64,000 nucleotides of DNA from an uncultured bacterium (lineage in GTDB: Bacteria; Hydrothermota; Tepidihabitantia; Tepidihabitantales; DTDR01), in the NCBI GenBank assembly GCA_964505415.1, contig CAZDHW010000002.1, positions 45,226 to 109,225 on the forward strand. Reading direction: 5' to 3'. The notes under the pieces were generated by a model. That model searched no databases. It saw only the letters and a program-made list of their open reading frames with translations, and was not told the DNA's origin. The position numbers and the translations under genes are program-made. Every line of letters begins with the position of its first letter. Within the stretch, counting starts at the first letter, position 1. Positions 8,263 through 40,139 of this stretch are shown here, piece by piece.

Positions 8263-8291
8263 TTGACTAATTTAATTCTTTTGAATATAAT
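8263..8291 (+). promoter_or_regulatory. sigma70-type promoter (TTGACT-N17-TATAAT) ending 5 nt before the ATG; probable leaderless transcript
   Basis: TTGACT at 8263-8268, a 17-nt spacer, TATAAT at 8286-8291, ATG at 8297. No room for a Shine-Dalgarno sequence. Confidence 0.4.
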
Positions 8292-8296
8292 ATAAA

Positions 8297-9454
8297 ATGA
8301 AAATAAAATTAGGGAAGAGATTTCTGATTGTTTATTTTATTCTTATTTTTTTAATATTAACTGCTATATTTTTTATTATTTCTTCTTTCCTTTTTAAGAA
8401 GTTAGAAGAGGAAATAACTTTGCGTTCACGCATTTTTGCTAAGTACATGTCGAAAGTTCAAGAAGAAGATTTGGAAAGTAGCTCCTATGAATTAGACATA
8501 ATTTTTGAAGAGGTGATTAAAAAAATTGATTTTCCTGTTGTTGTCATTGATGATAAAGGTGAAATTATTGCTTATCGGAATGTTGGTAAAAATCTAACTA
8601 AAGAAATATTAAAAAAGAAACTAGAACAATTAAAAAAAGAAAAACCGCCAATTCCTATTTTGGTTAATATTGGTGATACTACCAAATTTTTAGGTGAAAT
8701 TTATTATGGTCTTTCGCCAACAGCTAGATTTGTTCGTTTTTATCCTTATTATCAAATTTTGATTTTAGTTTTATTTATATTTTTGGGAATTTGGGCAATT
8801 TTTATTTATAAAAAAAGAGAAGAAGAAAAATTATGGACTTTTTTAGCAAAAGAAACTGCCCACCAGATGGCAACGCCCCTTTCTTCACTGATTGGATGGC
8901 TTTTGGCGATTAAAGATAAAATTGAAGAAAAATATTACGAAGAGATGATCTTAGATATTCAAAAAATGGAAATGGTTTTGGAAAGATTCTCGCGTATCGG
9001 TTTACCCCCAAAATTGGAGAATTTACCAATAAAAGAAATTATTGAAAAAGTTTGCGAACATTTTAAAAGAAGATTGCCACCAAATATTCAACTGGTTTTA
9101 GATTTAAAAACCAATCCTTTATTACCTTTAGATGAAGTACTTTTTAATTGGAGTTTAGAAAATCTTCTTAAAAATAGTATTGATGCTATTGGTTCTAATC
9201 CGGGTCGGATTGAAATCAAGGAGAATATTAATGATCGAAATTATGAAATTCAGATCATTGACAATGGCGAAGGGATTGACAAAAAAATTAGAGGCAAAAT
9301 TTTCAAAGCTGGTGTTACCAGTAAAAAATATGGTTGGGGTATTGGTTTATCGTTAGCCAAAAGAATTATTGAGGAATATCACTGCGGAAAATTATTATTA
9401 AGGGAATCAAAGAAAGGAAAAACAGTTTTTTCCATTATTTTAAAGAAAAAATGA
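8297..9454 (+). CDS. sensor histidine kinase (two TM helices, HisKA + HATPase_c); PorY-like partner of the downstream regulator
   Basis: H-box TAHQMATPLSSLIGWL, N-box NLLKNSIDA and G-boxes IDNGEGI / GWGIGLSLAK. Two hydrophobic segments near the N-terminus. Stop overlaps the next start (ATGA). Confidence 0.85.
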   Translation: MKIKLGKRFLIVYFILIFLILTAIFFIISSFLFKKLEEEITLRSRIFAKYMSKVQEEDLESSSYELDIIFEEVIKKIDFPVVVIDDKGEIIAYRNVGKNLTKEILKKKLEQLKKEKPPIPILVNIGDTTKFLGEIYYGLSPTARFVRFYPYYQILILVLFIFLGIWAIFIYKKREEEKLWTFLAKETAHQMATPLSSLIGWLLAIKDKIEEKYYEEMILDIQKMEMVLERFSRIGLPPKLENLPIKEIIEKVCEHFKRRLPPNIQLVLDLKTNPLLPLDEVLFNWSLENLLKNSIDAIGSNPGRIEIKENINDRNYEIQIIDNGEGIDKKIRGKIFKAGVTSKKYGWGIGLSLAKRIIEEYHCGKLLLRESKKGKTVFSIILKKK

Positions 9455-10962
9455 AAATCCTTTGGATTGATGATGAAATTGAACTTTTAAAACCTTTTAT
9501 CTATTTTCTTAAAGAAAAAGGGTACGAAATAAAAGAAGTGAATAATGGCATTGAAGGTTTAAATAAAATAAAAGAAGAAAATTTTGATTTAGTCTTTTTA
9601 GACGAGATGATGCCCGGTTTAGATGGTTTGGAAATTGCTCGGAAGATAAAAAATTATGATCCCAATATTTTTGTAGTGATGGTTACAAAAGTAAGTGACG
9701 AAGATTTCATTGATGAAGCCTATGCCAATTTGGTTGATGATTTTATCCTTAAACCTTTAAATCCAGTCCAGATTTTGGCCGTAATTAAAAGGTTATTAGA
9801 AAAAAAAGAAATCTTTAAAGAAAACTTAGTGCGTGAGTATTTAAAAATTCTTTCCGGAACAAAAGATTTTGAAACTTTTGAAGAATGGTGTGATTTTTAT
9901 CAACAATTGATAAAATGGCGAGAATATCTTAATCGATTTTCTTTAAATGATTTAAAAGAAAGTTACGAAGATATTTTAAAAGAGGGTAATGAAAATTTTG
10001 CTACCTTTATTGAGGAGAATTATTGTGATTGGTTAAAAAATAAAAAAGGGCCAATACTTTCTCACCAATTTTTTGAAAATTTTGTTAAGCCCCATTTGGA
10101 TAAATTGCCTTTATACTGGATAATTTTTGATTCGCTCCGGCTTGATCAGTGGTATTTTCTTTATAACATTTTGAAAGAACATTTTTTAATAAAACAGAAT
10201 TTTTATTGTTCGATTCTTCCTTCAGCAACACCTTATGCTCGTAATGCTTTGTTAAGCGGTTTAACACCGAAAAAAATTTTTGAATATTATCCAGAATATT
10301 GGGTATTTACTGATGTTGGACAAAATCGCTACGAAGAACAGCTTTTTCAAAAACTCTTAGCTAGAGAAAGAATTTCTTTAAAATATTTTTATTTAAAAAT
10401 TATAAGGATGGAAGACCTAATTGAGAAATTTGACTATCTTCTAAAGCCTGACGTTGGGATTGTGATAGTCATCATAAATTTTTTAGATTTTCTTATCCAT
10501 TCAGCTCGGGAAACTTTGTTTATTAAAGAAATTGCTGAAAATGAAGATTCTTTGTTAGAATTTACTAAAATCTGGTTTAACTCTTCTTTAATTTTTCAAT
10601 TTTTAAAAAAACTTAAAGAGAACGAGAGAAAAATAATTATTACTTCCGATCACGGATTTATTAAAGTGAAAAGGCCGACAATTATTTATGGAGGGCGAGA
10701 GATTTCGCCTAATCTTCGTTACAAATCAGGCGGTGGAATAACCATTGATAAAAAAGCTGCCTGGCTTTTAGAACCGAAGGAATTAGAATTGCCACAAGAA
10801 TTTTTGGGTGAAAAATACGCCATTTGTAAAAGCGATTATTATTTTATTTATCCTACCAAACCTAAAGAATATGAAAAAATTTATAAATTGACTTATCAAC
10901 ATGGAGGTATTTCACTTCAGGAAATGATTTTACCGGTAGGAATTTTATACCCCCTTGATTAA
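9451..10962 (+). CDS. response regulator with CheY-like receiver fused to a PglZ/alkaline-phosphatase-like effector domain (PorX-like)
   Basis: Receiver region MKILWIDDEIELL...DLVFLDEMMPGLDGLE...VVMVTK. C-terminal AP-superfamily motifs IIFDSLRLDQW, IIITSDHGF and YQHGGISLQEMILP as in PglZ. 503 aa, against roughly 518 aa recalled for PorX of P. gingivalis. Confidence 0.7.
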   Translation: MKILWIDDEIELLKPFIYFLKEKGYEIKEVNNGIEGLNKIKEENFDLVFLDEMMPGLDGLEIARKIKNYDPNIFVVMVTKVSDEDFIDEAYANLVDDFILKPLNPVQILAVIKRLLEKKEIFKENLVREYLKILSGTKDFETFEEWCDFYQQLIKWREYLNRFSLNDLKESYEDILKEGNENFATFIEENYCDWLKNKKGPILSHQFFENFVKPHLDKLPLYWIIFDSLRLDQWYFLYNILKEHFLIKQNFYCSILPSATPYARNALLSGLTPKKIFEYYPEYWVFTDVGQNRYEEQLFQKLLARERISLKYFYLKIIRMEDLIEKFDYLLKPDVGIVIVIINFLDFLIHSARETLFIKEIAENEDSLLEFTKIWFNSSLIFQFLKKLKENERKIIITSDHGFIKVKRPTIIYGGREISPNLRYKSGGGITIDKKAAWLLEPKELELPQEFLGEKYAICKSDYYFIYPTKPKEYEKIYKLTYQHGGISLQEMILPVGILYPLD

Positions 10963-10990
10963 ATTTATAAATTTATTTATAATAAATTTA

Positions 10991-11500
10991 ATGCCTGAAT
11001 TTACTTTTTTAGAAATTTTAAAAAAAGAACATTTTTTGATTGAAAGGGCATTACGAACCATGACTCTTTTGATAGTCAAAGACCAGTATTTAGAAAGAGA
11101 ATTTCAATTGGTTTACCAGATAATAAAAGATTTTGTAGAAGATAATCATTGTGCCAAAGAAGAAGAGATTTTATTTCCATTAATAAGAGAATACGAAATT
11201 GATGCCCAATTGGTGATGGTTAATGAGTCAGAAAAAAGAAAAGAAATTATTGAAACCTTGGAAAAAGGATTAAAAGATTTGGATAAAGAGAAATTTTTGG
11301 TAGGTTTACAAGATTTTATAGAAATTTTTGCTCGTCATATTTTTAAGGAAGAGGGTCTTATTTTTCCTGCCTGCGAAGCTCTTTTACCATCGGATATTAA
11401 TGAAAAAATTGTTAAAGATTTTAAAGAATATGAAAGAGATAACAGGGATTATGATTATTTTCTAAAAATCGTTGAAGATTTAGAAAAGATTATTTTCTAA
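10991..11500 (+). CDS. hemerythrin-like (HHE cation-binding) domain protein
   Basis: Two H..KEE..(L/I)FP motifs ([22 protein letters not shown]). ATG at 10991 is preferred over the upstream TTG, which would overlap the regulator's stop. Confidence 0.6.
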
Positions 11501-11501
11501 A

Positions 11502-14339: not shown

Positions 14340-15116
14340 ATTTTTCTCACAAATTCGTTCAATTCTTTTGGCTTTATAAGTAGCGGAATCAATTTCAACA
14401 ATTACTCCCTCTACTTTTAAATTGGTATTTGCTGGGATAAGACGATAATTGATTCCGTAAAGTAATCTTTTTAAAGAGTCTTCGATCTCCATACCTAAAA
14501 TAGAGTCATGGGCACCGCACATTCCAACATCAGTTATATAAGCAGTGCCCTTAGGCAAAATTTGTTCATCGGCCGTAGGGATATGGGTATGGGTTCCTAA
14601 GACGGCGCTTACTTTTCCATCTAAAAAATATCCCATAGCTTTTTTTTCAGCAGTGGCTTCTGCATGAAAATCAACAATAATAATTTTTTTGTTATTAATT
14701 TTGATTAATTCTTCGTCAATTCGGCGAAAAGGACAATCTAGGGGTTTCATAAAAACTCTGCCGATAAGATTTATGATAATAACTAACTGATTATTTTTTT
14801 CTAGAATACATATTCCTTTTCCTGGGGCTTCTGGAGGATAATTGAGCGGTCGAATAATACGGTTTTCTTTTTCTAAATAATTAATAATCTCTTTGCGATC
14901 AAAAGCATGGTCACCTAAAGTAATGCAATCTATCCCCAAAGATAAAAAATCTTCAACAATTTGAGGAGTAATTCCAAAACCTCCCGCAGCATTTTCGCCA
15001 TTCACAATGATAACATCGGGTTTGTATCTTTCTTTTAAAAATTTTACTCCTTTCACCAATGCTTTCCTCCCGGATTCTCCACACACATCACCCAAAAAAA
15101 GAATTTTATAATTCAT
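14313..15116 (-). CDS. ymdB: YmdB-family metallophosphoesterase (2',3'-cyclic-nucleotide phosphodiesterase-like, TIGR00282)
   Basis: [20 protein letters not shown]... with GENAAGG and GTHTH motifs. Lies directly downstream of rny, as in B. subtilis. Confidence 0.85.
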
Positions 15117-16626: not shown

Positions 16627-16649
16627 AGTTTCCCCTTTTTAAAATTGAA

Positions 16650-16823
16650 GGCTCCCCGTAGTATCGTGTTGGCGATGGTCTCTGAACCCTAAAAAAACTA
16701 TGGCGTCCTAAGGTGGGTCCTATCTTTGGAGGTCACCCTCCCGATAGTAAGCACCATCGGACATCCATCATTTAGGTGTTGGCTCAAGACCATTTTTACC
16801 AATCACGAATACTACCGGGAGCC
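16650..16823 (-). ncRNA. structured rod-like ncRNA, best guess 6S RNA (SsrS)-like; SRP RNA is the alternative
   Basis: About 174-nt GC-rich island between zapA and rny with no ORF. The 5' GGCUCCCGGUAGUAUUCGUG pairs with the 3' CACGAUACUACGGGGAGCC. Nested internal stems GGUCUUGAGCC/GGUUCAGAGACC (one G-U, supports the minus strand), CUAUC/GAUAG, and an apical GGGAGG-GUGA-CCUCC GNRA hairpin. Its 5' end overlaps the last 4 codons of zapA. Confidence 0.45.
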
Positions 16824-17087
16824 TTTATTATTTACCAATTTTTCAATGAGCATGTCTAATTTTTCTTTTAAAAAATTTTCTTGTTTTTCTTGACTATCCA
16901 ACAGTTCCTCAATAAGATTAAGAGAACCAAAAAGAATTAATTCGCTAAAATCTAAATAAGGAAATTTTTCTTTAAATTCTTTTACTTTATTCTCTAAAAG
17001 ACCAAACAATTTTTTTAAATATTCTTCATCACGGTCGCTTTTTACTTCATAAGTTCGTTCCAAAAATTTGATTTGGAAGCTTTTCAT
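16812..17087 (-). CDS. zapA: cell division protein ZapA-like
   Basis: 91 aa; N-terminal beta region (FQIKFLERTYEVKSDRDEEYLKKL) followed by a coiled-coil, ZapA-like in size and pattern. Confidence 0.55.
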   Translation of the reverse strand: MKSFQIKFLERTYEVKSDRDEEYLKKLFGLLENKVKEFKEKFPYLDFSELILFGSLNLIEELLDSQEKQENFLKEKLDMLIEKLVNNKGSR

Positions 17088-17281
17088 ATTTTAAGTTTAC
17101 CGAAACTTTTCAATTTTTCAATAAGAAATTTTACTTTTTTCAAACTTTTTTCTATTTTTTCTTGATAATGAGCCAATTCTTTTTTTAAAATGTCGTTTTC
17201 TTCTTTTAAAGATTTATTTTCGTGTAAAATTTTTTCTATTGATTCTTCCAAAATTTTTAACCGCTTTTCAATTTCATTCAT
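17084..17281 (-). CDS. small coiled-coil protein (ZapB-like?), hypothetical
   Basis: 65 aa, entirely heptad-like (LKEENDILKKELAHYQEKIEK). Translationally coupled between pheT and zapA. Confidence 0.4.
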   Translation of the reverse strand: MNEIEKRLKILEESIEKILHENKSLKEENDILKKELAHYQEKIEKSLKKVKFLIEKLKSFGKLKI

Positions 17282-19521: not shown

Positions 19522-19584
19522 TTCTTAATAAAGATAACGATTTTTAATCAAAAGTCAAGAAAAAAATAAGAAATTTATTTTTTT

Positions 19585-19612
19585 TTGACTTTAATAAATT
19601 TAAGATTATAAT
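19585..19612 (+). promoter_or_regulatory. sigma70-type promoter for metK (TTGACT-N16-TATAAT), leadered with AGGAG RBS
   Basis: TTGACT at 19585-19590 and TATAAT at 19607-19612. AAAGGAG lies ~8 nt upstream of the ATG at 19633. Confidence 0.4.
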
Positions 19613-19632
19613 TTTGAAAAAGGAGTGAAAAA

Positions 19633-22055
<2,423 letters not shown>

Positions 22056-22540
22056 TTATAAAAGTACGGTAAAGGAAAATTTAAGAATTTAAAAAAATTC
22101 CACTTAAGACCCCAAATCATCCAGGGAATGCCTATAGCCCTAACTTTAAATAACCGCTTTTAGCTAAAATATAAAAAGCACATAAAATCAACTAAATTTT
22201 TTCAATCTTTTCGTCATTTATAAACCTATTCTTTCCCACTTTAAAAATTCTATTCTTAGAAGAAGTACTTTTTCTATTCAAAACCAGCCTTTTACTACTA
22301 CTCTTTGGCTCAGTTTTATACCCTCTTCTATATTAGTGATTTTTCTCTAAATGTTATTAAATTATACACTCTTTAGTATAAAAAATCAAGATAAAGTTGA
22401 AAAGAAAGATTACTATTTGTAGCTACTGGTATCACATATTGTTTATCATGATATCTCCATCATTCCCGGGAATGGTAATTTTCCTGTCCTTTAAATTTAA
22501 ATTTCTTATTTAAAATTAGTCTTTTTAGCAAAAAGTCAAA

Positions 22541-27069: not shown

Positions 27070-27083
27070 AAATACCTCCTTTT

Positions 27084-27701: not shown

Positions 27702-27703
27702 TA

Positions 27704-28120: not shown

Positions 28121-28123
28121 TTT

Positions 28124-28525: not shown

Positions 28526-28529
28526 AATT

Positions 28530-29138
28530 TCATAACTTTTTGGTCAAATATTCAATTAAACTTGCTGCTGAAGTTTCTAAATCGCGCGTATAACTATTAA
28601 TTTTCATTTGATAAAGAATGTGAATAATTGCCAATGGAGCAGCAATCATTAATCCCCATTTAGTGGTAATGAGAGCTTCGGAAATTCCGGAAGCCACTAC
28701 CGCTGGTTCTACTTCGCCAACCGCCGCTACCGCAGCAAACGCTCGAATCATACCGGTAACAGTGCCTAAGAAGCCAAAAAAGGGAGCCACCATGGTTAAA
28801 CCACCCATTAAATTCATTCCCCGATCAAGAAAACCTAATTCCGCTACTCCGGCTCGAGTTACCGCTTCTTCCATTGCTGTTTTACCTTCTTTTGCTTTTT
28901 CTAAGGCTGCCAAAAGAACTCGAGCTACTGGACTTTTTACCTGTTGACAAAATTTTATTCCGCCTTCAATTCCTTCCTTTTCAATTGTGGAAATAAGTTG
29001 TGAAGTAAATTTTTTAGCATTAAGCGAGGCAACAATAAAAAGAGTAATAAATCGTTCAATAACTAAAGCAATTCCTAAGACAGCGCAAGCTAATAAAAAC
29101 CACATTATACCACCACCTTTAATGAATTCCTGTATCAT
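28530..29138 (-). CDS. exbB: MotA/TolQ/ExbB proton-channel protein
   Basis: GGGIMWFLLACAVLGIALVIERF N-terminus, three TM helices and a conserved GTVTGMIRAF segment. Confidence 0.85.
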   Translation of the reverse strand: MIQEFIKGGGIMWFLLACAVLGIALVIERFITLFIVASLNAKKFTSQLISTIEKEGIEGGIKFCQQVKSPVARVLLAALEKAKEGKTAMEEAVTRAGVAELGFLDRGMNLMGGLTMVAPFFGFLGTVTGMIRAFAAVAAVGEVEPAVVASGISEALITTKWGLMIAAPLAIIHILYQMKINSYTRDLETSAASLIEYLTKKL

Positions 29139-29201
29139 TTCTCCTCCTTATTTTTTAGTTCTTTTAAAATATTAAAAAAATTTTAAAAAAAGTCAATAAG
29201 A

Positions 29202-30692
29202 TTAAATTTCTTCCAAAAATTTGTATTCGTCATATTTAAGTTTAGGATTCATTTTTAGTTCTAAATGAAGATTAATTTTTTTAATAAGTTGTGTCAATTT
29301 TTCATTATATTCATTAATTAAATATTCGTAAAGATAAGGCGAAACTACTAAAAGAATCTTTTTCCCTTTTAACTTTTCGGCTTTATTTGTCAGTTCATTT
29401 TCTATTTTTAAGCAGGTTTCATAGCGATCCAAAATCCTTCCTCTTCCTCGACAAGCCGGACATTCTTCACAAAGGGTAAAAAAAAGGCTAGGACGGATTT
29501 TTTCCCGAGTCATTTCTACTAACCCAAATCGGCTGGGTTTGCCAAAATCAGCTTTAGCACGATCATTAGCAAGACACAGTTTTAATTCTTGATATACTCG
29601 CTCTCGATTTTTAGGTTCACGCATATCAATAAAGTCAATAATAATTAATCCTGATAAATCTCGTAAACGAATCTGGCGCGCAATTTCCGCAGCCGCTTCT
29701 AAGTTAGTTTGAAAAATTAATGTCTCGGGATCTTCCTCAGAGGCAAAGCTTCCGGTGTTAACATCAATAGTTACTAAAGCCTCCGTTTGGTCAATGGTAA
29801 TAAAACCGCCGCTTTTCAGAGGAATTTCTCTTTCTAAAGCTTTATTTAATTCTTCCTCAATTTTAAATTTTTTAAAAATTGGTTCTTTATCTTCATAAAG
29901 GATTATTTTTTCTTTAATAAATAATTCAGGAGTATAATTTTTTATATAATTACATATTTCATAATAAAGGTTGCGATCGTCTACATATACGGCTTCCGTA
30001 TCTAAAGTGTATAAATCCCGAATAATTTTTAAAGCCAATTTAGGTTCTTTATAAAGTAAACGGGGTGCCTTAGCCCTTTGAAATTCCCTTTCAATTTCTT
30101 CCCATATCCCTTCTAAATAATGATAATCCCGAACAATTACTTCTTCAGGCATATTTTCAGCAGCTGTTCTAATTATTAGTCCCCGGTTTGGTTTTTTTAA
30201 TTTCTTAGCAATTTCTTTCAAACGGGCACGTTCCCTTTTGTTAGTAATTCTTTGAGAAACTCCTATTCGTGAGATAGTAGGGAAAAGAACTACATATTTA
30301 CCGGCCAAATGAATAAAAGAAGTTAAACGAGCTCCTTTCTCACCCATTTGTTCTTTTACTACTTGACAGAAAATTTGATCACCCACATTTATAGGTAATT
30401 CCTCTTTATTTCCTTTTTTAACCTTTTCTTCTTCTTCTAAATCAATTCCAAATATCTCTTCCGGTATTTCCGCCAAGGGCAAAAAACCGTTTTTCCTTAA
30501 ACCAATATTGACAAAAGCACCGCGCAATCCTTTTACAATATTCTCTACTCGACCTTTAAAAATTTTGCCTACATTATTTTCAATCCCTTCTCTTTCTACA
30601 TAGAATTCTACCAATCGCCCGTTTTCCAAAATTCCGATACGCGTATCGTTAAACTTGTGAGTGATAACAATTGTGGTTTTAATTTTAATCAT
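29202..30692 (-). CDS. rng: ribonuclease G/E family (Rng/CafA)
   Basis: N-terminal S1 domain (GKIFKGRVENIVKGLRGAFVNIG) followed by an RNase E/G catalytic domain. 496 aa. Confidence 0.85.
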   Translation of the reverse strand: MIKIKTTIVITHKFNDTRIGILENGRLVEFYVEREGIENNVGKIFKGRVENIVKGLRGAFVNIGLRKNGFLPLAEIPEEIFGIDLEEEEKVKKGNKEELPINVGDQIFCQVVKEQMGEKGARLTSFIHLAGKYVVLFPTISRIGVSQRITNKRERARLKEIAKKLKKPNRGLIIRTAAENMPEEVIVRDYHYLEGIWEEIEREFQRAKAPRLLYKEPKLALKIIRDLYTLDTEAVYVDDRNLYYEICNYIKNYTPELFIKEKIILYEDKEPIFKKFKIEEELNKALEREIPLKSGGFITIDQTEALVTIDVNTGSFASEEDPETLIFQTNLEAAAEIARQIRLRDLSGLIIIDFIDMREPKNRERVYQELKLCLANDRAKADFGKPSRFGLVEMTREKIRPSLFFTLCEECPACRGRGRILDRYETCLKIENELTNKAEKLKGKKILLVVSPYLYEYLINEYNEKLTQLIKKINLHLELKMNPKLKYDEYKFLEEI

Positions 30693-33039
30693 CTTCCAGG
30701 GGGGTCATTAATTTGTCGTTTTTTATTAAATAATGCTCAATTCTTTTTATTGAGAATAATTTTACTTCTTCTTCATTTAAATTGGTAATTTTAGATAAAG
30801 TAGGAAAGAGTTTAACCCCAGGTTCAAAAGGTAAAAGGACTTCTAAAATTTGATTCTCTAGCCGAGCGTAATAAATATTAGTTAATTTTATTTTTTTTAA
30901 TTGAGGTTCATCTAAAAGAATTTCATATTTAAGAAATTTAATTGATTTTCCTAGAGTAGGAGCATCGTTTTTTATTTCTTTAAAATCTAAAATTATCAAA
31001 TCTTTAGGCATAAAATCTCCTAAATCCTTTATGAGATTACCATTATAATCAATTTTTAAAAAAATGTCAAGATATTCACTTTCGGAAATAACTCCAACTG
31101 GTAAAGGCGGACCAAAAGCTACTAGGTAGCGAGGGGAAAAACCGGTAGAATAAATGACTGGTAGTCCGGAACGCCTTATTGCCCGGTAAATTGCTCGCAC
31201 GAGATCTAAATGAGAAGCAAAACGAAAATTTTCGCCTACTTTAAATTTAACTCGAAATCTTTTGTAATAATGGGAAAAAGGAGCTGCTGGTTTAAAAAAA
31301 GAAAGCGGCTGAAAATTAGGATTTGTTTTATTTGTTAGTGATAAATAATTATTTGGCTTTTCTTCTTTAAGTGATAATGCTTTTTGATAATTTTGGATTA
31401 ATAAATTTTTTGGTATCCCAATGTCAATAAAATCCCAAGGAAGAGCTTCGTCAACCTTTTTTTCTTTTAAATAAGAAAGATAATCAATCTGATTTTTGTT
31501 AAAACTTTCTACCCAGATATTATATTTAAAATGTTCAGTCCAATCTTGAAAAATTGCTTGCTGGCGATAAGCATTTTCAATTGCCCAAGCTAATTTTTCA
31601 TCTCCGCGGGCTAAAACGGCTTGAATTTCTGCCTGTGCAAAATTTTCATATTTTACTTTTACATTTTTAGATTTCACTTCTCTTTTTATAATTTTAATTT
31701 TTTCTTGAAGAATTTCTTTTTCTTCAAATTGATAGAATTGAAAAGGAGTATGAGGCTTAGGAATGAGAGGGGAGATGGAAACGCGAATTTCCCTTCTTTG
31801 AGCAATTTTACCTAAAAAATTTAAAAAGTAGCCGATTTCTTTCACATCTTCTTCTTTTTCTTGTGGTAAACCAATCATAAAGTAGAATTTAATTCCGGGC
31901 CAATTATGCTTTATTAAAAGTTCTACCGCCTTGATAATTTTTTCATTAGCAATTTCTTTATTTATGACTTTTTTTAACCGATAAGAAACTGTTTCGGGAG
32001 CAAAAGTTATGCCGGTTCGTTTGATAAATTTTAATTGGTTTATAAGTTCTTCATCGAAATCCTCACCGCGCAAAGAAGGAAGAGAAATGGCTACTAAGTA
32101 AGGATGTAGAAGTTCATTTAAAGAACTTAAAAGCTGAGGTAAATGAGGATAGTCACCGGCTGAAAAGGAAAGTAGCGAAATTTCTTCGTAGCCCGTAGCT
32201 TTTATTGCTCGAAACGCCAATTTTTTAATCTCTTCAATTGGACGAATTCTTAAAGGCCGGTTTGTAAATCCTGCCTGACAAAAATAACAACCACGGGCAC
32301 AGCCGCGAGAAATTTCAATGGTCAGGTGGTCGTGGACAATATTACAAATAGGTACTAAAGGTGGAAAAGGAAAATCTTCTTCTTTTAATTCTTTTACATA
32401 TCTCTTTCTGATAATTTTGTTCCGATTATGGATTAAAGGAACATAAACCCCTTCTAAGTTGGCTAAATTTTCTAATAGTTTTTTTTTGTCATTTTTGAAA
32501 TTTCTATAAACATCGACAATTTCTAAGATTACTTCTTCGCCATCGCCTATAACAAAAGCATCAATAAATGGAGACATAGGTAAAGGATTCACACAACAAG
32601 GACCGCCGGCAATTATTAAAGGATAATTACCGTGAATTCTTTCTTCAGTCCGTAGAGGTATTTTGCTTAAGGAAAGACAGTAAAGAACATTGGGATAATT
32701 AAGTTCCGAATGTAAAGAGAAGCCAATTATATCAAACTTAAATAAAGGTAGCTTGTTTTCTAAAGAAAATAGGGGAAGATTATGTTCTTCTAATTTTTTA
32801 CCAAAATCTAAAGCTGGGGCATAGCTTCTTTCACAAATAGTATTTTTATAGGAGTTTAATTTTGAATAAAGAATTTTTAAACCATAATTAGACATGCCGA
32901 TTTCGTAAATTTCTGGAAAAACTAAACAAACCTTTATAGTATTTTTTTTAATCGGTAAGGGAAAAAGATTGAATTCACCACCTGTATATCTTATGGGTTT
33001 AGTTACTAAGGGCAGAAGATTTTGTATTTTTTTTATCAT
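30685..33039 (-). CDS. radical SAM protein with N-terminal B12-binding-like domain fused to a DUF2344 (TIGR03960 + TIGR03936-like) module
   Basis: CxxxCxxC in SRGCARGCYFCQAG. 784 aa, where the C-terminal ~230 aa resemble the rSAM-linked DUF2344 family. Overlaps rng by 8 nt. Confidence 0.7.
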   Translation of the reverse strand: MIKKIQNLLPLVTKPIRYTGGEFNLFPLPIKKNTIKVCLVFPEIYEIGMSNYGLKILYSKLNSYKNTICERSYAPALDFGKKLEEHNLPLFSLENKLPLFKFDIIGFSLHSELNYPNVLYCLSLSKIPLRTEERIHGNYPLIIAGGPCCVNPLPMSPFIDAFVIGDGEEVILEIVDVYRNFKNDKKKLLENLANLEGVYVPLIHNRNKIIRKRYVKELKEEDFPFPPLVPICNIVHDHLTIEISRGCARGCYFCQAGFTNRPLRIRPIEEIKKLAFRAIKATGYEEISLLSFSAGDYPHLPQLLSSLNELLHPYLVAISLPSLRGEDFDEELINQLKFIKRTGITFAPETVSYRLKKVINKEIANEKIIKAVELLIKHNWPGIKFYFMIGLPQEKEEDVKEIGYFLNFLGKIAQRREIRVSISPLIPKPHTPFQFYQFEEKEILQEKIKIIKREVKSKNVKVKYENFAQAEIQAVLARGDEKLAWAIENAYRQQAIFQDWTEHFKYNIWVESFNKNQIDYLSYLKEKKVDEALPWDFIDIGIPKNLLIQNYQKALSLKEEKPNNYLSLTNKTNPNFQPLSFFKPAAPFSHYYKRFRVKFKVGENFRFASHLDLVRAIYRAIRRSGLPVIYSTGFSPRYLVAFGPPLPVGVISESEYLDIFLKIDYNGNLIKDLGDFMPKDLIILDFKEIKNDAPTLGKSIKFLKYEILLDEPQLKKIKLTNIYYARLENQILEVLLPFEPGVKLFPTLSKITNLNEEEVKLFSIKRIEHYLIKNDKLMTPLEDD

Positions 33040-33041
33040 TT

Positions 33042-33395
33042 CTATTCGCCTTCAATGCTTTCTAAGTAATAATCATTACCTTTTTTAAAAATAATTTTTG
33101 AAGAGTTACATCGGGGACAAAGAATATAAAAAAAATCGGCCGTTGGTTTAAGTTCACCACAATAACCACAATTTTTACATTCAATTTCTGGCTGTTCTTC
33201 AATAGTATTTATTTCGTTTTCTTTTGCTAAAATTTCTTTTAAACCCTCTCTTAACCAAAATAGAAGCTGCTCCTTGTTGATTAAAGTTAAAATACCTATT
33301 CTTAAATTTATTTTATAAATTTTATTTATCTGGTATTTTTGGCAGATCTGTTTGATGGTTTTAATCAGAAATTGGGCGCAAGAAAATTCATGCAT
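33042..33395 (-). CDS. hypA: hydrogenase/urease nickel incorporation protein HypA
   Basis: N-terminal MHEFS and a zinc-finger CKNCGY...CPRCNS. 117 aa. Confidence 0.8.
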   Translation of the reverse strand: MHEFSCAQFLIKTIKQICQKYQINKIYKINLRIGILTLINKEQLLFWLREGLKEILAKENEINTIEEQPEIECKNCGYCGELKPTADFFYILCPRCNSSKIIFKKGNDYYLESIEGE

Positions 33396-34059
33396 CAGTT
33401 AAAAACTTTATTATTTTTTCTAGACCTTTACCTTTTTTAGCAATTGTTTCCACAATATGAACAGTGGGTTTAATTTTTTTTATATCGACCTTCAATTTAG
33501 GTAAAGAAACGCCCATCTTTTTAGCTAAATCAATTTTGTTAATTACCACCATATCAGCTTCCTTAAAAATATAAGGATGTTTTATTACTACGTAGGGCCC
33601 CTCAGTACAAGAAAAAATAACAATTCTTTTGTGAGCGCCTAAAGGAAATTCAGCGGGGCAGATGAGATTCCCAACATTTTCAATAAAAAGAAGATTGATT
33701 TTATTTAAAGGTAAATTTTTTATTGCTTCATTTATTAATTTGGCATCTAAATGACATTCTTTACCCGTATTAATCTGAATTACTTTGGCCCCATTTTTTT
33801 TAATCAATTGAGCATCAATTTGAGTAGTTAAATCACCGGCAATTACTGCGAGGGTGTATTTTTTTCTTAATTTTTTAACTAGCTGACATATCAAAGTAGT
33901 TTTGCCACTGCCAATCGATCCTAAAATGTCAATTGCTTTTATACCATAGTAATCAAAAATTTTTTGATTTTCGTCTGCTAATTCTTTATTTTTTCTTAAC
34001 AAACTTTCTTCTAATTCAATATCAAAAATTTCGCCTTTTTGGTGTTTAATAATTTTCAT
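33388..34059 (-). CDS. hypB: nickel-incorporation GTPase HypB
   Basis: P-loop GSIGSGKTTL and CH motif (ECHLDA). 223 aa, of the CobW/HypB/UreG family. Confidence 0.85.
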   Translation of the reverse strand: MKIIKHQKGEIFDIELEESLLRKNKELADENQKIFDYYGIKAIDILGSIGSGKTTLICQLVKKLRKKYTLAVIAGDLTTQIDAQLIKKNGAKVIQINTGKECHLDAKLINEAIKNLPLNKINLLFIENVGNLICPAEFPLGAHKRIVIFSCTEGPYVVIKHPYIFKEADMVVINKIDLAKKMGVSLPKLKVDIKKIKPTVHIVETIAKKGKGLEKIIKFLTDA

Positions 34060-34079
34060 AATTAAATTTTAATAATAAA

Positions 34080-34108
34080 TTGACTTTTTTCAATGATAAA
34101 TTTATAAT
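34080..34108 (+). promoter_or_regulatory. sigma70-type promoter (TTGACT-N17-TATAAT) ending 6 nt before the nnr ATG; probable leaderless transcript
   Basis: TTGACT at 34080-34085, TATAAT at 34103-34108 and ATG at 34115. Confidence 0.4.
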
Positions 34109-34114
34109 TTTTCA

Positions 34115-35692
34115 ATGAAAAGATTAGTGACTCAAGAAGAAATGGCCAGAGTTGACCAACAATCAGCGGAAAAATTTAATCTGCCAACAATAATTTTGAT
34201 GGAAAATGCCGGAAGAAGTGTGATTGAACACCTTCAAAGATATTTTGGTATCCAAGAAAAAGATTTTTCTAAAAAGAATTTTTTGATCTTCTGTGGTAAA
34301 GGAAATAATGGTGGCGATGGTTTTGTAGCTGCTCGCTTCTTACTAAATAAAAAAGCAAAAGTTACAACTTTTTTATTGGGAAAATTGAACGATTTAAAAG
34401 ACGATGCTAAGATAAATGCTGAAAGATATCAGAATTTTGGTGGAAAAATAGTGGAAGTCACAGATAATGATTTTAATTTTTCCTCTTTTATTCCGTTGGA
34501 AAAAAAAGATACTTATATTATTGATGCTATTTTGGGCACCGGGATAAAAGGCGAGATAACCGGGATATATAAAAAGGCAATTGATTTTATTAATCAAACT
34601 AATTTACCGGTTATTGCAGTTGATGTGCCCTCCGGAGTTATGGAAGAGGGCAAAGTTAATAATGTTTGTGTAAAAGCTGATATCACTATAAGTATGGGGT
34701 TTATAAAAAGAAGTTTAGTTTTACCACCAGCAAGAGAGTATGCCGGAAAAATTTTTGTTGGCGATATTGGCACTTGCTATAATTATTTTAATAATCAAGG
34801 TAATACTTATTTGGTAGAAGAAAAGGATATAAAAAACTTTCTTCCTAAAAGAATAAGTTGGGGGCATAAAGGTACTTTTGGAAATTGTTTGGTAATTGCC
34901 GGTTCCCGAGGTTACAGTGGTGCTGCCTGTTTAGCTGCTTTGGGAGCTTTAAAAATTGGTGCTGGTTTAGTATATTTAGCAACACCAAAACCAATTATTG
35001 ATGTGGTGGAGACGAAACTTACGGAAGTGGTGAAGATCCCGTTAAATTGGGAGGAAGGTTTTACTCTAAATAACTTAGAAATACTTCTTTCCTTATTATC
35101 CAAAATAGATGTTATTGCGCTGGGACCTGGTATAGGAGTAAATAATAATAACAAAATTTTTTTAAAAGAAATTCTCACAACCGTCGCTGAAAGAAAAATT
35201 CCGATTGTTATTGATGCTGACGGAATAAATTGTTTAAAAGAAGAAGTTGCTTTTTTTAAAACTTTAACCGAAAATAATCTTTCAATAATTTTAACGCCCC
35301 ATCCTGGAGAATTGAGTCGTTTGATTAAGGTTTCGCCGGATGAAATTAATGATAACCGAATAGAAATTGCTCGTTCCTTTAGTAAGGAATATAAAATTTA
35401 TTTGGTGTTAAAAGGTTCGCCAACGGTAGTGGCTACGCCTGAAGGAGTAGTTTATGTTAATCCAACAGGAAACTCCGGATTAGCAAGCGGTGGCAGTGGT
35501 GATGTTTTAACCGGTTTTATTACCGGTTTATTAGCGCAGGGTTTAAAACCTAAAGAAGCCGCAATAGTAGGTGTTTATCTTCACGGTTTAGCAGCTGACT
35601 TGGCATTAATAGAAAGAACAGAATACGATTTCATCGCTTCAGATATTTTTGCTTATCTTCCCAAAGCCATAAAAAAAGTTCTTGATGCTTAA
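34115..35692 (+). CDS. nnr: bifunctional NAD(P)H-hydrate repair enzyme (epimerase YjeF-N + ADP-dependent dehydratase)
   Basis: N-terminal YjeF-N (CGKGNNGGDGFVAARFL) and a C-terminal carbohydrate-kinase-like domain (GPGIG, GGSGDVLTG). Confidence 0.9.
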   Translation: MKRLVTQEEMARVDQQSAEKFNLPTIILMENAGRSVIEHLQRYFGIQEKDFSKKNFLIFCGKGNNGGDGFVAARFLLNKKAKVTTFLLGKLNDLKDDAKINAERYQNFGGKIVEVTDNDFNFSSFIPLEKKDTYIIDAILGTGIKGEITGIYKKAIDFINQTNLPVIAVDVPSGVMEEGKVNNVCVKADITISMGFIKRSLVLPPAREYAGKIFVGDIGTCYNYFNNQGNTYLVEEKDIKNFLPKRISWGHKGTFGNCLVIAGSRGYSGAACLAALGALKIGAGLVYLATPKPIIDVVETKLTEVVKIPLNWEEGFTLNNLEILLSLLSKIDVIALGPGIGVNNNNKIFLKEILTTVAERKIPIVIDADGINCLKEEVAFFKTLTENNLSIILTPHPGELSRLIKVSPDEINDNRIEIARSFSKEYKIYLVLKGSPTVVATPEGVVYVNPTGNSGLASGGSGDVLTGFITGLLAQGLKPKEAAIVGVYLHGLAADLALIERTEYDFIASDIFAYLPKAIKKVLDA

Positions 35693-37109
35693 TCTTTTTT
35701 TAACATTTCTTTTTTTGATTTACAACGAAAAGTTATGGACAAATTATTTAGCTTGTGATACTTTTTTAAATATTACTGGTGATGAAAGAATGATTTATGT
35801 GGGAATAAAAAATGGAATTTTGCTATTTGATGCAAAGAAAATTGAATATCTTAAAAGTTTAACAAAATTAGACGGTATTTTAGAAAATTTAAAATTGATT
35901 GCTTATGACCGAGAATTAAACTCTCTTTGGTTATTGGATGACTCTTCTAATTTGATGAATTATTCGCCCTTTACTAAGAAAAAAGAAATATTCAAATTAA
36001 ATATTAATCCGCAAGCAATTGGGGTGGGAAAACAATTTTTATATTTCCTCGTTAATGAAGATACTTTTAAATGGGATAAAAAGAAAAGAAAATTATTAAA
36101 AATTGAAAAAACCGATGATACCTCCCTTTTTTGGTACGGTAAAAAAAAGAAATATTTAGTAAAAGATTTTATTTTTCTCACTCCTTATTATTATTTAGAT
36201 GAAAACTTAAATAAATATTATTATCGCGAAGTTTTTGTTAGTAAAAGAAATCTTTGGGTAAGTGCCGATGATTACGGAATTTTAGTTTTTGATTTAACTG
36301 TTAAAAATTTGGTAAAAGTTTTTCCTTTTAATAGTATTTTAGGCAGAATAAAAAAAATCGTTAAATTTCAAAAAAATGTTTGGCTCATTGGTGATGATTA
36401 TTTAATAAAAACTGCGGATAAAATTTGGCAATGGCAGTTTATTCCAATTTCTTTTAGTACCAAAATTTATGAAAAAGAAAATTTATTGAAATATAAATTT
36501 CTAGAATTGTTTTATAAAAAACCAGTTACTCTTTTAACCAATTCTCAGGATTTATTAGCATATATTTCTGAAGATAACATTTATCTTTTCTTGCCAGATT
36601 ATTCAAAACCTATTGAAATTAGAATCCCAACTTTTGTGGAAAATATTAGCTTTCTTAATGATACTTTAGTAATTTTGACTCAAGAAGGTTTTTATTTATT
36701 TGATTATAAAAATAATAATTTTTTAAATTTTTTAAATTATCCTCAGGAGTTAAAATTGGGTGTTTTTTCTTTTATCTCTTTAAAAAATGTTTGGTATTTA
36801 GGAGTTAGAGGAGGTTTCTGGATTTATAATGATAATAAATGGGAAAAAATTATCTTACCGATTAACGATTTATCGGAACCGGTAAAGGAATTGGTAAGTT
36901 TTAACAAATATTTAATTACCAAAATTAAGAATCAAATTATATTCTTTGACACTAAAAGACAATTATTTTTCTTTTTAAAAAAAGAAGATGGGTTGTTAGG
37001 CGATAATATTTATTCTTTAGCAGTTGATAATAATAAATTATGGATAACCCATGAAAAAGGGATTTCGTTTTTTGATTTAACTTCTTTAACAAAAAGAATA
37101 AAAAAATGA
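35682..37109 (+). CDS. hypothetical exported beta-propeller protein (two-component-regulator-propeller / Reg_prop-like repeats)
   Basis: Hydrophobic N-terminus. Repeated G(L/I)xxFD blades (IYVGIKNGILLFD, NLWVSADDYGILVFDL, NKLWITHEKGISFFDL). Overlaps nnr stop and is coupled to the LCP gene. Confidence 0.45.
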   Translation: MMLNLFLTFLFLIYNEKLWTNYLACDTFLNITGDERMIYVGIKNGILLFDAKKIEYLKSLTKLDGILENLKLIAYDRELNSLWLLDDSSNLMNYSPFTKKKEIFKLNINPQAIGVGKQFLYFLVNEDTFKWDKKKRKLLKIEKTDDTSLFWYGKKKKYLVKDFIFLTPYYYLDENLNKYYYREVFVSKRNLWVSADDYGILVFDLTVKNLVKVFPFNSILGRIKKIVKFQKNVWLIGDDYLIKTADKIWQWQFIPISFSTKIYEKENLLKYKFLELFYKKPVTLLTNSQDLLAYISEDNIYLFLPDYSKPIEIRIPTFVENISFLNDTLVILTQEGFYLFDYKNNNFLNFLNYPQELKLGVFSFISLKNVWYLGVRGGFWIYNDNKWEKIILPINDLSEPVKELVSFNKYLITKIKNQIIFFDTKRQLFFFLKKEDGLLGDNIYSLAVDNNKLWITHEKGISFFDLTSLTKRIKK

Positions 37110-38158
37110 GAAAATTAATTTTTTTAATTTTAATACTTTTGATTTTTGTTTCGATAATCTTTATTATTTATCAAAAAAATAACAAAATGATACAAATAAA
37201 GTATCCCCAGACCTCATCCGATTTAAAAAATAAAATCAACATTCTTTTAATTGCTAAAGATGCTTTAATAATCGACAAAAAGAGATTGAGTAATGGAAAA
37301 GAAGAATTGATATTAGAAAAGAAATCAAGGAGTGATATTATCAATATTGTTCACATTGATTTTGATAATGCCCAAATAAAAATTTTAAATATTCCCCGAG
37401 ACATGTTAGTTAGTATTCCTTACTATACTCGCGAAAGTTCTTTGTATGATTTTAATAATTTAGACAAAATAAACCACAGCTATTTTTATGGGGGCGAAAC
37501 ACTTTTAATCAAAACAATTGAAAAAAATTTCAACATTGAAATTGACCGTTATTTGGTTATTGATTTTGTGAGATTTCAAAAAATGATAAAACTTTTGAAG
37601 CCTTTGGTGAAAACTTTTAAAATAAGAGAAGGTATTGAGGCTGACGATCCTTTCACCGTACAAGAACTTTTAAAAAACCGATATCGTTATCCTCATGATG
37701 ATATTGACCGGAGTCGCAATTCTTTATTTTTTATTAAAGATCTTACCCAAAAAATTTATTCCCAAGTAAATTGGTTGAATTATCCCATTTTTAAAAAAAT
37801 CTTTTGGGAAGTTTTTAAAGGAAATACTAATCTTACTGATGATGATATTAATAAGATATTTATTCAATTAAAAGAAAAAAACTTCAACCCGGAGAATATG
37901 AAATTAGGAGTAATGATCGGTTGCCCCAAAATAGTGTATTTAAATCGTTTCTCTCAACATCTTTCTTGTTATTTACCTATTTATGAAGAAATTGAAAAAC
38001 AGATAAAATATTTTATTTATGATTCAGCCAACATTTCTCCTAAATTTTATCTCAGCGATAGTGAAAAATTTTTAATTCCTCCATATGTAACTAAAGATTA
38101 TACTTTAGCGGTGGATACCTTAGACTTAAAAATTGAAATAAAATCTCTAAAGTTTTAA
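37106..38158 (+). CDS. LytR-CpsA-Psr (LCP) family protein
   Basis: N-terminal TM anchor and an LCP core (INIVHIDF..., NIPRDMLV, DKINHSYFYGGETLLIKTIEKNFNIEIDRYLVIDFVRFQKMI). Confidence 0.6.
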   Translation: MRKLIFLILILLIFVSIIFIIYQKNNKMIQIKYPQTSSDLKNKINILLIAKDALIIDKKRLSNGKEELILEKKSRSDIINIVHIDFDNAQIKILNIPRDMLVSIPYYTRESSLYDFNNLDKINHSYFYGGETLLIKTIEKNFNIEIDRYLVIDFVRFQKMIKLLKPLVKTFKIREGIEADDPFTVQELLKNRYRYPHDDIDRSRNSLFFIKDLTQKIYSQVNWLNYPIFKKIFWEVFKGNTNLTDDDINKIFIQLKEKNFNPENMKLGVMIGCPKIVYLNRFSQHLSCYLPIYEEIEKQIKYFIYDSANISPKFYLSDSEKFLIPPYVTKDYTLAVDTLDLKIEIKSLKF

Positions 38159-38251
38159 ATTCTTTAAGTTATTGGAATTTAAACACTTGTAATGTTTTAA
38201 AGCCATTATGGCAGACCTTAAAATAATTTAACCTTTTTTAATTTAAATTTA

Positions 38252-38279
38252 TTGACAATAAAAAATTATTTATTATAAT
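38252..38279 (+). promoter_or_regulatory. sigma70 consensus promoter (TTGACA-N16-TATAAT) ending 6 nt before the thrS ATG; probable leaderless transcript
   Basis: TTGACA at 38252-38257, TATAAT at 38274-38279 and ATG at 38286. No SD. Confidence 0.4.
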
Positions 38280-38285
38280 CATTAT

Positions 38286-40139
38286 ATGAAAATATTGGAT
38301 TTATTTAATGATGAAAGGATAGTTGCTGCTAATCTAAATGGAAAGTTAGTTGATTTGTCTTTGGAAATAGACGAAAAAGATAAAGATAAAGTTAAACCAG
38401 TGTATTTTGATAGTGAAGAAGGAAGGAGTATTTTTTGGCATTCCAGTGCTCACCTTTTAGCTCACGCAGTGAAATTACTTTTCCCCTCCGTAAAATTGGG
38501 AATTGGACCAGCAATTGAGGATGGTTTTTATTATGACTTTTATAAAGAACCGCCTTTTTCTCAAGAAGATTTTTCGTTAATTGAAAAAAAGATGAAAGAA
38601 TTAGTTGATTTAGATTTAACTATTGAACATCTTTATTTATCAAGGGAAGAGGCAATTGAATATTTTAAAAAAAAGGGTGAAGATTTTAAATTGGAGATTT
38701 TAAATGAAATTCCTGACGAAAAAGTTTCAGTATATAAACAAGGAGATTTTATTGATCTCTGTTTAGGTCCCCATTTGCCTCGGACAGGGATGATTAAAGC
38801 TTTTAAACTTTTGAGTGTTGCCGGAGCTTATTGGAAAGGCGATGAGGGAAATCCTATGTTATCAAGAATTTATGGCGTTTCTTTTCCAACGGAAGAGGAA
38901 TTAAAAAATCATTTAAGTTTTTTAGAAGAAGCCAAAAAACGGGATCATCGGAAGTTAGGTACTTTTTTAGAGATTTTTTCTTTTTTCGAAGAAGCTGGAA
39001 GTGGTTTGGTCTATTGGCTTCCTAAGGGAGCAATTTTAAGGAGAATTATTGAAAATTATTGGATTGAAAAACACTTGGAAAAAGGTTATCAATTAGTTTA
39101 CACACCCCACATTGCTCGGGAAGCTTTATGGGATATTTCGGGTCATACTAAATATTATAAAGAAAATATGTATTTTATTTCTGGCGAAAATGAAAATTAT
39201 ATTTTAAAACCAATGAATTGTCCTGGCCACATTTTAATATATAAATCAAAAATTAGAAGTTATAAAGATTTACCTTTAAGAATTTGTGAATTAGGTACGG
39301 TTTATCGCCAAGAAAGGAGTGGAGTTTTATACGGTACTTTAAGAGTAAGAGGATTTACTCAGGATGATGCTCATATTTTTGTTACTCCGGAAACGGTAGA
39401 AGACGAAATTGTGGATATTTTAAAATTTTCTTTAGAAATATTGAAAGACTTTGGTTTTCAGGAGTTTAGCTTTGAACTTTCTTTGCGTTCCTTATCAGAA
39501 AAAGAAAAATATATGGGAAACGAAAAAGAATGGGAAATGGCTGAAAAATCACTGATAAATGCTTTAAGAAGATTAAATCTGGATTATAAAGAAGCTTATG
39601 GAGAAGCTACTTTTTACGGACCCAAGATTGATTTGAAATTACAAGGTTTCTTGAAAAAAGAGCAAGCCACCACAATTCAATTTGATTTCAATCTTCCCAA
39701 AAGGTTCCATGTTACTTATATGGGAAAAGATGGTTTTCGTCACGAAACTATAATTATTCATCGAACAATTCTTGGTTCCTTGGAAAGATTTATTGGGATA
39801 TTGATTGAATATTATGGTGGTGCTTTCCCTGTTTGGCTTTCACCAATACAAGTAATAATAATGACCATCACCGAAAAAGAAATTCCTTATGCCCAAAGGA
39901 TTTGTGAAAAATTAAGAAATGAAAAGTTTAGAGTTGAAAGTGATTTTCGTTCAGAAAAAATCAACTATAAAATTGCTGAAAGTGAAAGGATGAAAATCCC
40001 TTATATGATAATTATTGGAAAAAAAGAAGTTGAAGAAAATTGTATTAGTGTTCGAAAAAGAAGAGAAGGTGATTTGGGAAAGATGGGTTTAGATAATTTG
40101 GTTAAAATGATAAGAGAAGATATTGAAAAAAGGAGGTAA
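38286..40139 (+). CDS. thrS: threonine--tRNA ligase
   Basis: 617 aa with class II aaRS motifs, an editing-domain HxxxH (HSSAHLLAH) and a C-terminal anticodon-binding domain. Confidence 0.95.
   Translation: MKILDLFNDERIVAANLNGKLVDLSLEIDEKDKDKVKPVYFDSEEGRSIFWHSSAHLLAHAVKLLFPSVKLGIGPAIEDGFYYDFYKEPPFSQEDFSLIEKKMKELVDLDLTIEHLYLSREEAIEYFKKKGEDFKLEILNEIPDEKVSVYKQGDFIDLCLGPHLPRTGMIKAFKLLSVAGAYWKGDEGNPMLSRIYGVSFPTEEELKNHLSFLEEAKKRDHRKLGTFLEIFSFFEEAGSGLVYWLPKGAILRRIIENYWIEKHLEKGYQLVYTPHIAREALWDISGHTKYYKENMYFISGENENYILKPMNCPGHILIYKSKIRSYKDLPLRICELGTVYRQERSGVLYGTLRVRGFTQDDAHIFVTPETVEDEIVDILKFSLEILKDFGFQEFSFELSLRSLSEKEKYMGNEKEWEMAEKSLINALRRLNLDYKEAYGEATFYGPKIDLKLQGFLKKEQATTIQFDFNLPKRFHVTYMGKDGFRHETIIIHRTILGSLERFIGILIEYYGGAFPVWLSPIQVIIMTITEKEIPYAQRICEKLRNEKFRVESDFRSEKINYKIAESERMKIPYMIIIGKKEVEENCISVRKRREGDLGKMGLDNLVKMIREDIEKRR

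Follow-up and report, generated by a model that had tools for sequence, protein, structure and literature searches.

Consensus promoters abutting start codons and probable leaderless mRNAs in an AT-rich bacterium of candidate division WOR-3

In a number of bacterial lineages, the promoter of many genes lies almost against the start codon, which leaves no place for a Shine-Dalgarno (SD) element. In genomes that GeneMarkS-2 assigns to its group C, 25-50% of operons carry a Pribnow box at 6-8 nt from the start (PMC6028130), and the same pattern has been described under the name of 'TA-led' genes (PMC3160421). So far it has been described chiefly in the Actinobacteria and Deinococcus-Thermus (PMC6028130, PMC3160421), with a patchy occurrence in low-GC Firmicutes and Mycoplasma. 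Here we present an analysis of 64,000 nt of an uncultured bacterium (contig CAZDHW010000002.1, positions 45,226 to 109,225; this whole stretch is the window below), in which sigma-70-type promoters butt against the start codons of a histidine kinase gene (HK), of nnr, of thrS and of about eight other genes that come first in their operons. Judged from the DNA and its conservation, we put at roughly three in four the probability that these promoters yield leaderless or near-leaderless mRNAs.

The arrangement itself is well known in other bacteria, and its instance in candidate division WOR-3, to which the host belongs, is conserved and not a product of chance. With group C and TA-led genomes the window shares a -10 hexamer close to the start (ending 5, 6 and 6 nt before HK, nnr and thrS), SD-less starts alongside SD-using genes, and an extent of roughly 25-50% of operons. 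It differs from them in being AT-rich (31% GC) and in belonging to an uncultivated phylum, and whereas the high-GC groups carry a TANNNT-only signal, the promoters here combine a near-perfect -35 with a full TATAAT. Leaderless translation in mycobacteria depends on a 5' ATG or GTG, which by itself suffices; TTG is unused, and orthologs often keep the leaderless state (PMC4633059). A 5'-terminal ATG or GTG is what the window genes are predicted to share with this system, and an exchange of ATG for GTG at thrS among relatives fits the mycobacterial purine-first (RTG) rule; the mycobacterial case, however, was established by RNA-seq, ribosome profiling and reporters, while ours is inferred from DNA only. 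The classic leaderless mRNA is that of lambda cI, made from PRM (PMC10491246); as predicted for our genes, its transcription from a sigma-70 promoter begins at the A of AUG, but it belongs to a single regulated phage gene and is not a genome-wide habit. No paper in the searched literature linked WOR-3, or Caldifarciminota, with leaderless genes.

Promoters at HK, nnr and thrS

A sequence-only reading of this DNA had reported consensus promoters directly before three start codons and a TATAAT before a fourth, that of the gene for 5-formyltetrahydrofolate cyclo-ligase (5-FCL). When the sequence was read directly, the three complete sites were present exactly as claimed:

8263-8291, + strand: HK promoter; TTGACT (8263-8268), 17-nt spacer, TATAAT (8286-8291), 5 nt (ATAAA), ATG 8297
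8297-9454, + strand: HK; 385 aa, HATPase_c (Pfam), predicted leaderless
34080-34108, + strand: nnr promoter; TTGACT (34080-34085), 17-nt spacer, TATAAT (34103-34108), 6 nt (TTTTCA), ATG 34115
34115-35692, + strand: nnr, bifunctional NAD(P)H-hydrate repair enzyme; 525 aa, YjeF_N and Carb_kinase (Pfam), predicted leaderless
38252-38279, + strand: thrS promoter; TTGACA (38252-38257), 16-nt spacer, TATAAT (38274-38279), 6 nt (CATTAT), ATG 38286
38286-40139, + strand: thrS; threonyl-tRNA synthetase (ThrRS) of 617 aa (Pfam), predicted leaderless, at the head of a thrS-infC-rpmI-rplT-pheS cluster
1929-1934, + strand: 5-FCL -10 hexamer; TATAAT, 5 nt, ATG 1940 (Pfam 5-FTHF cyclo-ligase)

Scored as sigma-70 hexamers spaced 16-18 nt apart, the HK, nnr and thrS promoters match TTGACA/TATAAT at 11-12 of 12 positions, and all three reach 12/12 if a T is accepted at the last -35 position, where HK and nnr read TTGACT. 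At 5-FCL the TATAAT stands 5 nt before the ATG as reported, but the promoter is incomplete, since the -35 is weak and no good one lies at 16-18 nt. In all four genes the ATG is the earliest possible start following the in-frame stop. The absence of an SD from HK, nnr and thrS was also borne out, since gaps of 5-6 nt leave no room for one.

Transcription from sigma-70 promoters usually starts about 7 nt past the -10, with a preference for a purine. RNA polymerase would then start, about 7 nt past the -10 of these promoters, at the purine (A or G) that opens the start codon; the predicted +1 is this base itself where the gap is 6 nt, and lies within 1-3 nt of it where the gap is 5 or 7-9 nt. Ribosomes would bind the 5'-terminal AUG or GUG directly and initiate translation there, a route demonstrated by experiment in mycobacteria and other bacteria. 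Highly expressed genes (gap, metK, those for ribosomal proteins, exbB-like, gdh) have strong SDs in leaders of about 14-30 nt instead. At HK, nnr and thrS, the leaderless reading, allowing a leader of at most 3 nt, is favoured by the positional enrichment given below, by the lack of room for an SD and by the purine-first starts, as well as by coding constraint from codon 1 and by the conservation of promoter and spacing in relatives.

The full consensus TTGAC(A/T)-N16/17-TATAAT occurs 5 times in the window, both strands counted, against a mean of 0.10 and a maximum of 2 in 200 dinucleotide shuffles, a 50-fold excess. Among the 1465 ATG triplets, only five have a TATAAT 5-6 nt upstream, and four of these five are the starts of HK, nnr, thrS and 5-FCL. 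A -35/-10 pair that scores at least 10/12 and ends 5-7 nt ahead of the codon precedes 8 of 58 gene starts and 5 of 1418 other ATGs (P ~4e-11). In the window, the positional peak of the -10 signal exceeds the background. Loose matches (at least 9/12) were not enriched over shuffles (87 against 77.6, and 45 against 37.5), and therefore only matches of at least 10/12 were used; at 31% GC a match is informative only when it is near-perfect. A promoter-centric test took every promoter scoring at least 11/12 with a long open reading frame (ORF) within 80 nt, and counted the ORF starts 5-9 nt past the -10. In the window together with 12 kb of flanking extensions, 8 of 12 starts fell at this distance (null 0.10, P = 3e-6), and in four distant relatives of 36-46% GC (L068, L070, L072 and L105) the count was 10 of 11 (null 0.10, P = 7.5e-10), with the abutting-promoter signal stronger in the relatives of 42-46% GC than in the window itself. 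Control loci gave 0/0 in Bacteroidota, 0/6 in SAR116/Pelagibacter and 0/0 in the Candidate Phyla Radiation (CPR).

Conservation among relatives

The window's ThrRS is 83-85% identical to those of three genomes that are syntenic with window 28-46 kb (L001-L003), of which L002 and L003 are labelled candidate division WOR-3 and L001 uncultured bacterium; WOR-3 is Caldifarciminota under current NCBI naming. Contigs of the same species are present in several public metagenomes. Overall, in the WOR-3 relatives, conservation spans the -35 to the start codon, with a spacing of 5-8 nt, and the DNA upstream of the -35 diverges. At thrS, both hexamers are invariant in L001-L003 and the spacer is nearly so, with the same divergence upstream of the -35, and the start codon is GTG (at 6, 8 and 6 nt respectively) where the window has ATG, one purine standing in for the other. 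The 55-bp region between nnr and the divergent hypB-like gene is 94% identical across four genomes (the window and L001-L003), although Nnr itself is only 73% identical; its N-terminus is conserved from codon 1 on, and its ortholog in the distant contig L105 reads TTGACT-16-TATAAT-5-ATG. The gene at 44865-45992 (- strand) is likewise kept from -35 to ATG in L001-L003, with diverging sequence upstream and only synonymous changes after the ATG.

The HK promoter is kept in three closer relatives (L065-L067), whose kinase is 94-95% identical and whose sequence upstream of the -35 differs. Changes past the ATG are synonymous in these close relatives, and the N-terminus MKIKLGKRF is conserved at 53-57% identity. 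In the relatives at that level of identity, however, the gene lies 10-13 nt after thyX and the promoter is absent, so the arrangement at HK is young. In L068 and L105 the kinase is preceded by a gene in the place of thyX, which we take as the thyX ortholog and which has TTGACA-16/17-TATTAT-8-ATG. At 5-FCL the close relatives have a gap of 6 nt instead of 5; with about 95% DNA identity, L065-L067 are too close to inform on the 5-FCL, NTPase and 16812 regions.

In the thrS, nnr, 44865-45992 and HK comparisons alike, synonymous changes start directly after the start codon, and signal peptides and Pfam domains begin at codon 1-6 of the abutting starts. MurA in L068 starts MDKF at its abutting ATG; this is presumably also how E. 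coli MurA begins. From these comparisons we take the annotated abutting ATG to be the true N-terminus.

Contigs of 62-68% GC (L073-L085) carry a kinase 38-45% identical to HK. A conserved promoter, cTTGACt-N17-TAgcAT, precedes the ortholog there, followed by a conserved short leader, GACACACAACGTTCTTGAAC, that is present whole or in part in L073, L075, L077-L080, L082 and L084; the kinase start behind this leader is probably an SD-less TTG.

Extent of the pattern and alternative readings

About 11 first-in-operon genes of the window are of the leaderless type, by which we mean that the -10 ends 5-9 nt before an SD-less start: 5-FCL, thyX, HK, a hemerythrin-domain gene, pheT, the hypB-like gene, nnr, thrS, 44865-45992, 48997-51069 and proS. 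The pattern is thus wider than the cases of the sequence-only reading and takes in about half of the operons. The further members are as follows:

34066-34093, - strand: divergent promoter of the hypB-like gene; TTGAAA, 16 nt, TAAAAT, 6 nt, ATG 34059; conserved in L001-L003
33388-34059, - strand: hypB-like (CobW/HypB/UreG) GTPase gene (Pfam), predicted leaderless
6782-6809, + strand: thyX promoter; TTGAAA, 16 nt, TATTCT, 8 nt, ATG 6818
10955-10983, + strand: promoter of the hemerythrin-domain gene (10991-11500); TTGATT, 17 nt, TATAAT, 7 nt, ATG 10991
19531-19558, - strand: pheT promoter; TTGACT, 16 nt, TATCTT, 9 nt, ATG 19521; predicted leader 2-3 nt
45999-46026, - strand: promoter of a 375-aa protein without a Pfam family; TTGACT, 16 nt, TATTTT, 6 nt, ATG 45992
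51076-51104, - strand: promoter of a Kelch-repeat protein with a signal peptide; TTGACT, 17 nt, TATTAT, 6 nt, ATG 51069
58917-58944, - strand: proS promoter, within the bacA 3' end; TTGACA, 16 nt, TATCTT, 7 nt, ATG 58909

The thyX start at 6818 is that of the gene caller's 462-aa product, and in the hemerythrin gene the Pfam domain begins at residue 6 of the product from ATG 10991, which is the true start. All of the vetted leaderless-type starts are ATG or GTG. The 12 kb past the window ends add one clean case (L062 15397, TTGAAA-17-TATAAT-6-ATG) and three SD-leadered genes. Three places were ambiguous and were left out of the count: the secG site at 3778-3805, the NTPase ATG at 3058, which a mere 13 nt (3059-3071) separate from the gene for tRNA-Val, and bacA, which starts at TTG 59680 or ATG 59674. 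A candidate at 16812-17087 (- strand), TTGAAA-16-TAAACT-6-ATG, was rejected as operon-internal, since the 190 nt ahead of it contain a small ORF whose stop overlaps its ATG (ATGA); this unannotated ORF, at 17090-17280 (- strand), encodes about 65 aa rich in coiled-coil-like residues (MNEIEKRLKILEE...).

Alongside these stand about 7 first genes with an SD in a leader of no more than about 14-30 nt, namely those for a Cys/Met pyridoxal phosphate (PLP) enzyme, gap, RNase Y, metK, an exbB-like protein, a tetratricopeptide repeat (TPR) protein and 63135. Two of them serve as contrast cases:

6769-6796, - strand: gap promoter; TTGATT, 16 nt, TATAAT, leader of about 22 nt with SD GGGAGGGG, ATG 6740
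19585-19612, + strand: metK promoter; TTGACT, 16 nt, TATAAT, 20 nt with AAGGAG, ATG 19633

About 20 of the 58 genes are operon-internal and overlap the upstream stop by 1-14 nt, commonly in the ATGA manner, and most of them have neither SD nor promoter (for example 9451, 20796, 29202-30692, 42253-43131 and 43128-44069, the last three on the - strand). These overlapping SD-less genes suggest, from their layout, wide translational coupling or SD-independent initiation. Of the dual initiation regime proposed by the sequence-only reading, the coexistence of frequent leaderless-type genes with strong-SD genes held up (about 11 against about 7), but two regimes are too few, and at least three contexts have to be told apart.

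Several points weigh against the leaderless reading. In its raw form the promoter-centric test lacks full specificity, since Clostridia control loci gave 4 of 10 starts at 5-9 nt. Two of those four matches are one site in sister genomes, and three of the four N-termini (CarD-like twice, and L13) suggest a start further downstream, the RuvX-like one being ambiguous; because of these artefacts the raw test over-counts and case-by-case vetting is needed, and every match in the present lineage was vetted individually for an alternative SD-preceded start. Two lineage matches then proved to be very short SD leaders and were rejected as leaderless: the L059 Por_Secre_tail gene, where AGGAG precedes an ATG at codon 10, and L070 16242, where GGAGG precedes one at codon 5. 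In the remaining lineage matches no SD-preceded alternative start was found, and their N-termini are backed by homology or a signal peptide. The transcription start sites themselves are placed from the DNA, by way of the spacing of about 7 nt that usually separates them from the -10; by this measure the 5-nt gap of HK and 5-FCL puts the A of the ATG at the sixth base past the -10, one short, and the gaps of 8-9 nt (thyX, pheT, and thrS in L002) imply a leader of 1-3 nt. E. coli ribosomes use a 5'-end GUG poorly (PMC4633059). The folding energy of the first 25 or 40 nt did not set leaderless-type genes apart from the others, a test that is uninformative because everything here is unstructured. 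Finally, a scan of 33000-41000, taking in the DNA ahead of thrS, turned up no terminator-like hairpin on the + strand, so read-through transcripts may also exist.

This last point lends some weight to the view that the abutting promoters are secondary, with most mRNA coming from upstream promoters or read-through and with SD-less translation achieved through AT-rich unstructured leaders or coupling. Also in its favour, many operon-internal genes are evidently translated without an SD, and an upstream gene on the same strand ends at or beyond the promoters of proS and the hemerythrin gene. We nevertheless consider this view unlikely: the divergent regions between the hypB-like gene and nnr (55 bp) and between gap and thyX (77 bp) hold no other promoter-like sequence, and the near-perfect consensus, together with conservation that begins at the -35, argues for strong primary promoters. 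The promoters could also be real while the abutting ATG goes untranslated, being enclosed in a short leader ahead of a downstream in-frame start codon. This does occur in the lineage, as L059 and L070 show, and the Clostridia matches look alike. As a general account it is improbable, given that no SD-preceded in-frame start lies within the first 30 codons of HK, nnr, thrS, 44865-45992, proS, pheT or 48997-51069, that codons 2-10 show coding constraint among relatives, and that domains and signal peptides begin so close to the abutting start. Chance, by which some of the TATAAT- and TTGACA-like hexamers common at 31% GC would fall before ATGs by luck, is consistent with the shuffle-like frequency of the loose matches, but it is a very poor explanation for a full consensus in such excess and in so non-random a position relative to starts, or for elements that are kept while the flanking DNA diverges and that give a stronger signal in relatives of higher GC content.

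thrS regulation, infC and other promoters

The sequence-only reading had also held that thrS has no room for the leader-based autoregulation of E. coli, and this stands: 6 nt separate the -10 from the ATG, and no Rfam match accompanies them. Rfam found only two tRNAs across the window and nothing at E<=1 in 37900-38500 around thrS. In the window we see neither an E. coli-type operator, that is, a leader with mimics of the tRNA-Thr anticodon arm next to the ribosome binding site, nor, by Rfam across the window and at a permissive threshold around thrS, a T-box leader. Although E. coli has the same gene order, thrS-infC-rpmI-rplT-pheS, the window thrS thus differs from both the E. coli operator and the Firmicute T-box in having no 5' leader or Rfam match, so neither mechanism can act from its promoter. 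The E. coli thrS operator is a feature of the gamma-proteobacteria, and a leaderless thrS is unsurprising outside the gamma-proteobacteria and Firmicutes.

The strong SDs that had been ascribed to infC, rpmI and rplT are present (AAGGAGG/AGGAG), but infC starts at ATT 40143 and not at ATG 40188:

40130-40145, + strand: infC initiation region; AAGGAGG that overlaps the stop codon of thrS, 6 nt, ATT start at 40143

This ATT and its SD are invariant in L001-L003, where the ATG 40188 chosen by the ORF finder is AAA, so the unusual start codon of E. coli initiation factor 3 (IF3) is kept in this phylum. In E. coli, infC is linked to start-codon discrimination, and by analogy the self-control of IF3 may be retained here. 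The ThrRS, for its part, gave no Pfam match for a TGS domain (38286-38450), and its first 25 residues presumably resemble only the end of that domain. Proteins of other phyla align to it from residue 7-52 onward, and its N-terminal domain appears truncated in this lineage.

Short distances between promoter and mature RNA were also noted at four tRNA genes:

3037-3072, + strand: tRNA-Val; TTGATT-16-TATTAT, 7 nt to the mature 5' end
63073-63036, - strand: tRNA-Ala; TTGACT-16-TAAATT, 9 nt to the mature 5' end
15819-15856 of L062: tRNA-Asn; TTGACT-17-TAAAAT, 8 nt to the mature 5' end
571-607 of the distant relative L068: tRNA-Leu; TTGACA-16-TATAGT, 8 nt to the mature 5' end

In these cases the predicted 5' leaders would be only 0-4 nt long, leaving RNase P little to remove.

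Perhaps, in WOR-3 at large, most primary transcripts start at the functional 5' end, with about half of the operons leaderless, a leaderless GUG tolerated and tRNA 5' leaders of 0-4 nt; we offer this tentatively, at somewhat below even odds. In that case WOR-3 ribosomes would be tuned to 5'-terminal start codons and RNase P would have little work. If the leaderless reading is true, gene callers that rely on SDs would misplace starts in this phylum; start ambiguities have already been seen at infC, thyX, bacA and the hemerythrin gene. The regulation of thrS, proS and pheT would then have its target in the promoter or the protein and not in an mRNA leader. A low-GC lineage with full -35 and -10 elements would also join a list of leaderless-rich lineages that is mostly high-GC, and would help in studying which selective forces favour leaderless initiation. 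None of this alters the accepted view of how leaderless mRNAs function.

Two divergent regions, hypB-like/nnr (34060-34114) and gap/thyX (6741-6817), hold interlocked promoters, in which each -35 lies inside the spacer of the other and the opposite-strand -35 hexamers are 2-3 bp apart; with this geometry two polymerases probably cannot bind at once. Low coding density was seen at 51070-55172, where the gaps measure 771, 349, 301 and 595 nt and the gene-caller tables list short ORFs without a Pfam family. Between two convergent genes, in a 485-nt gap (22056-22540) where ORFs do not exceed 31 aa and Rfam gave nothing at E<=1, lies a strong promoter, TTGATT-17-TATAAT (22361-22389, - strand), which may drive a small RNA or an antisense transcript. 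A further promoter of full consensus, TTGACA-17-TATAAT at 31070-31042 (- strand), is found inside a 784-aa gene (30685-33039) whose neighbours allow the guess that it is hypF-like, about 350 nt upstream of the gene for RNase E/G (29202-30692). From -35 to -10 it is invariant in L001-L003 bar one spacer position, the encoded protein being about 75% identical, which suggests a functional internal promoter.

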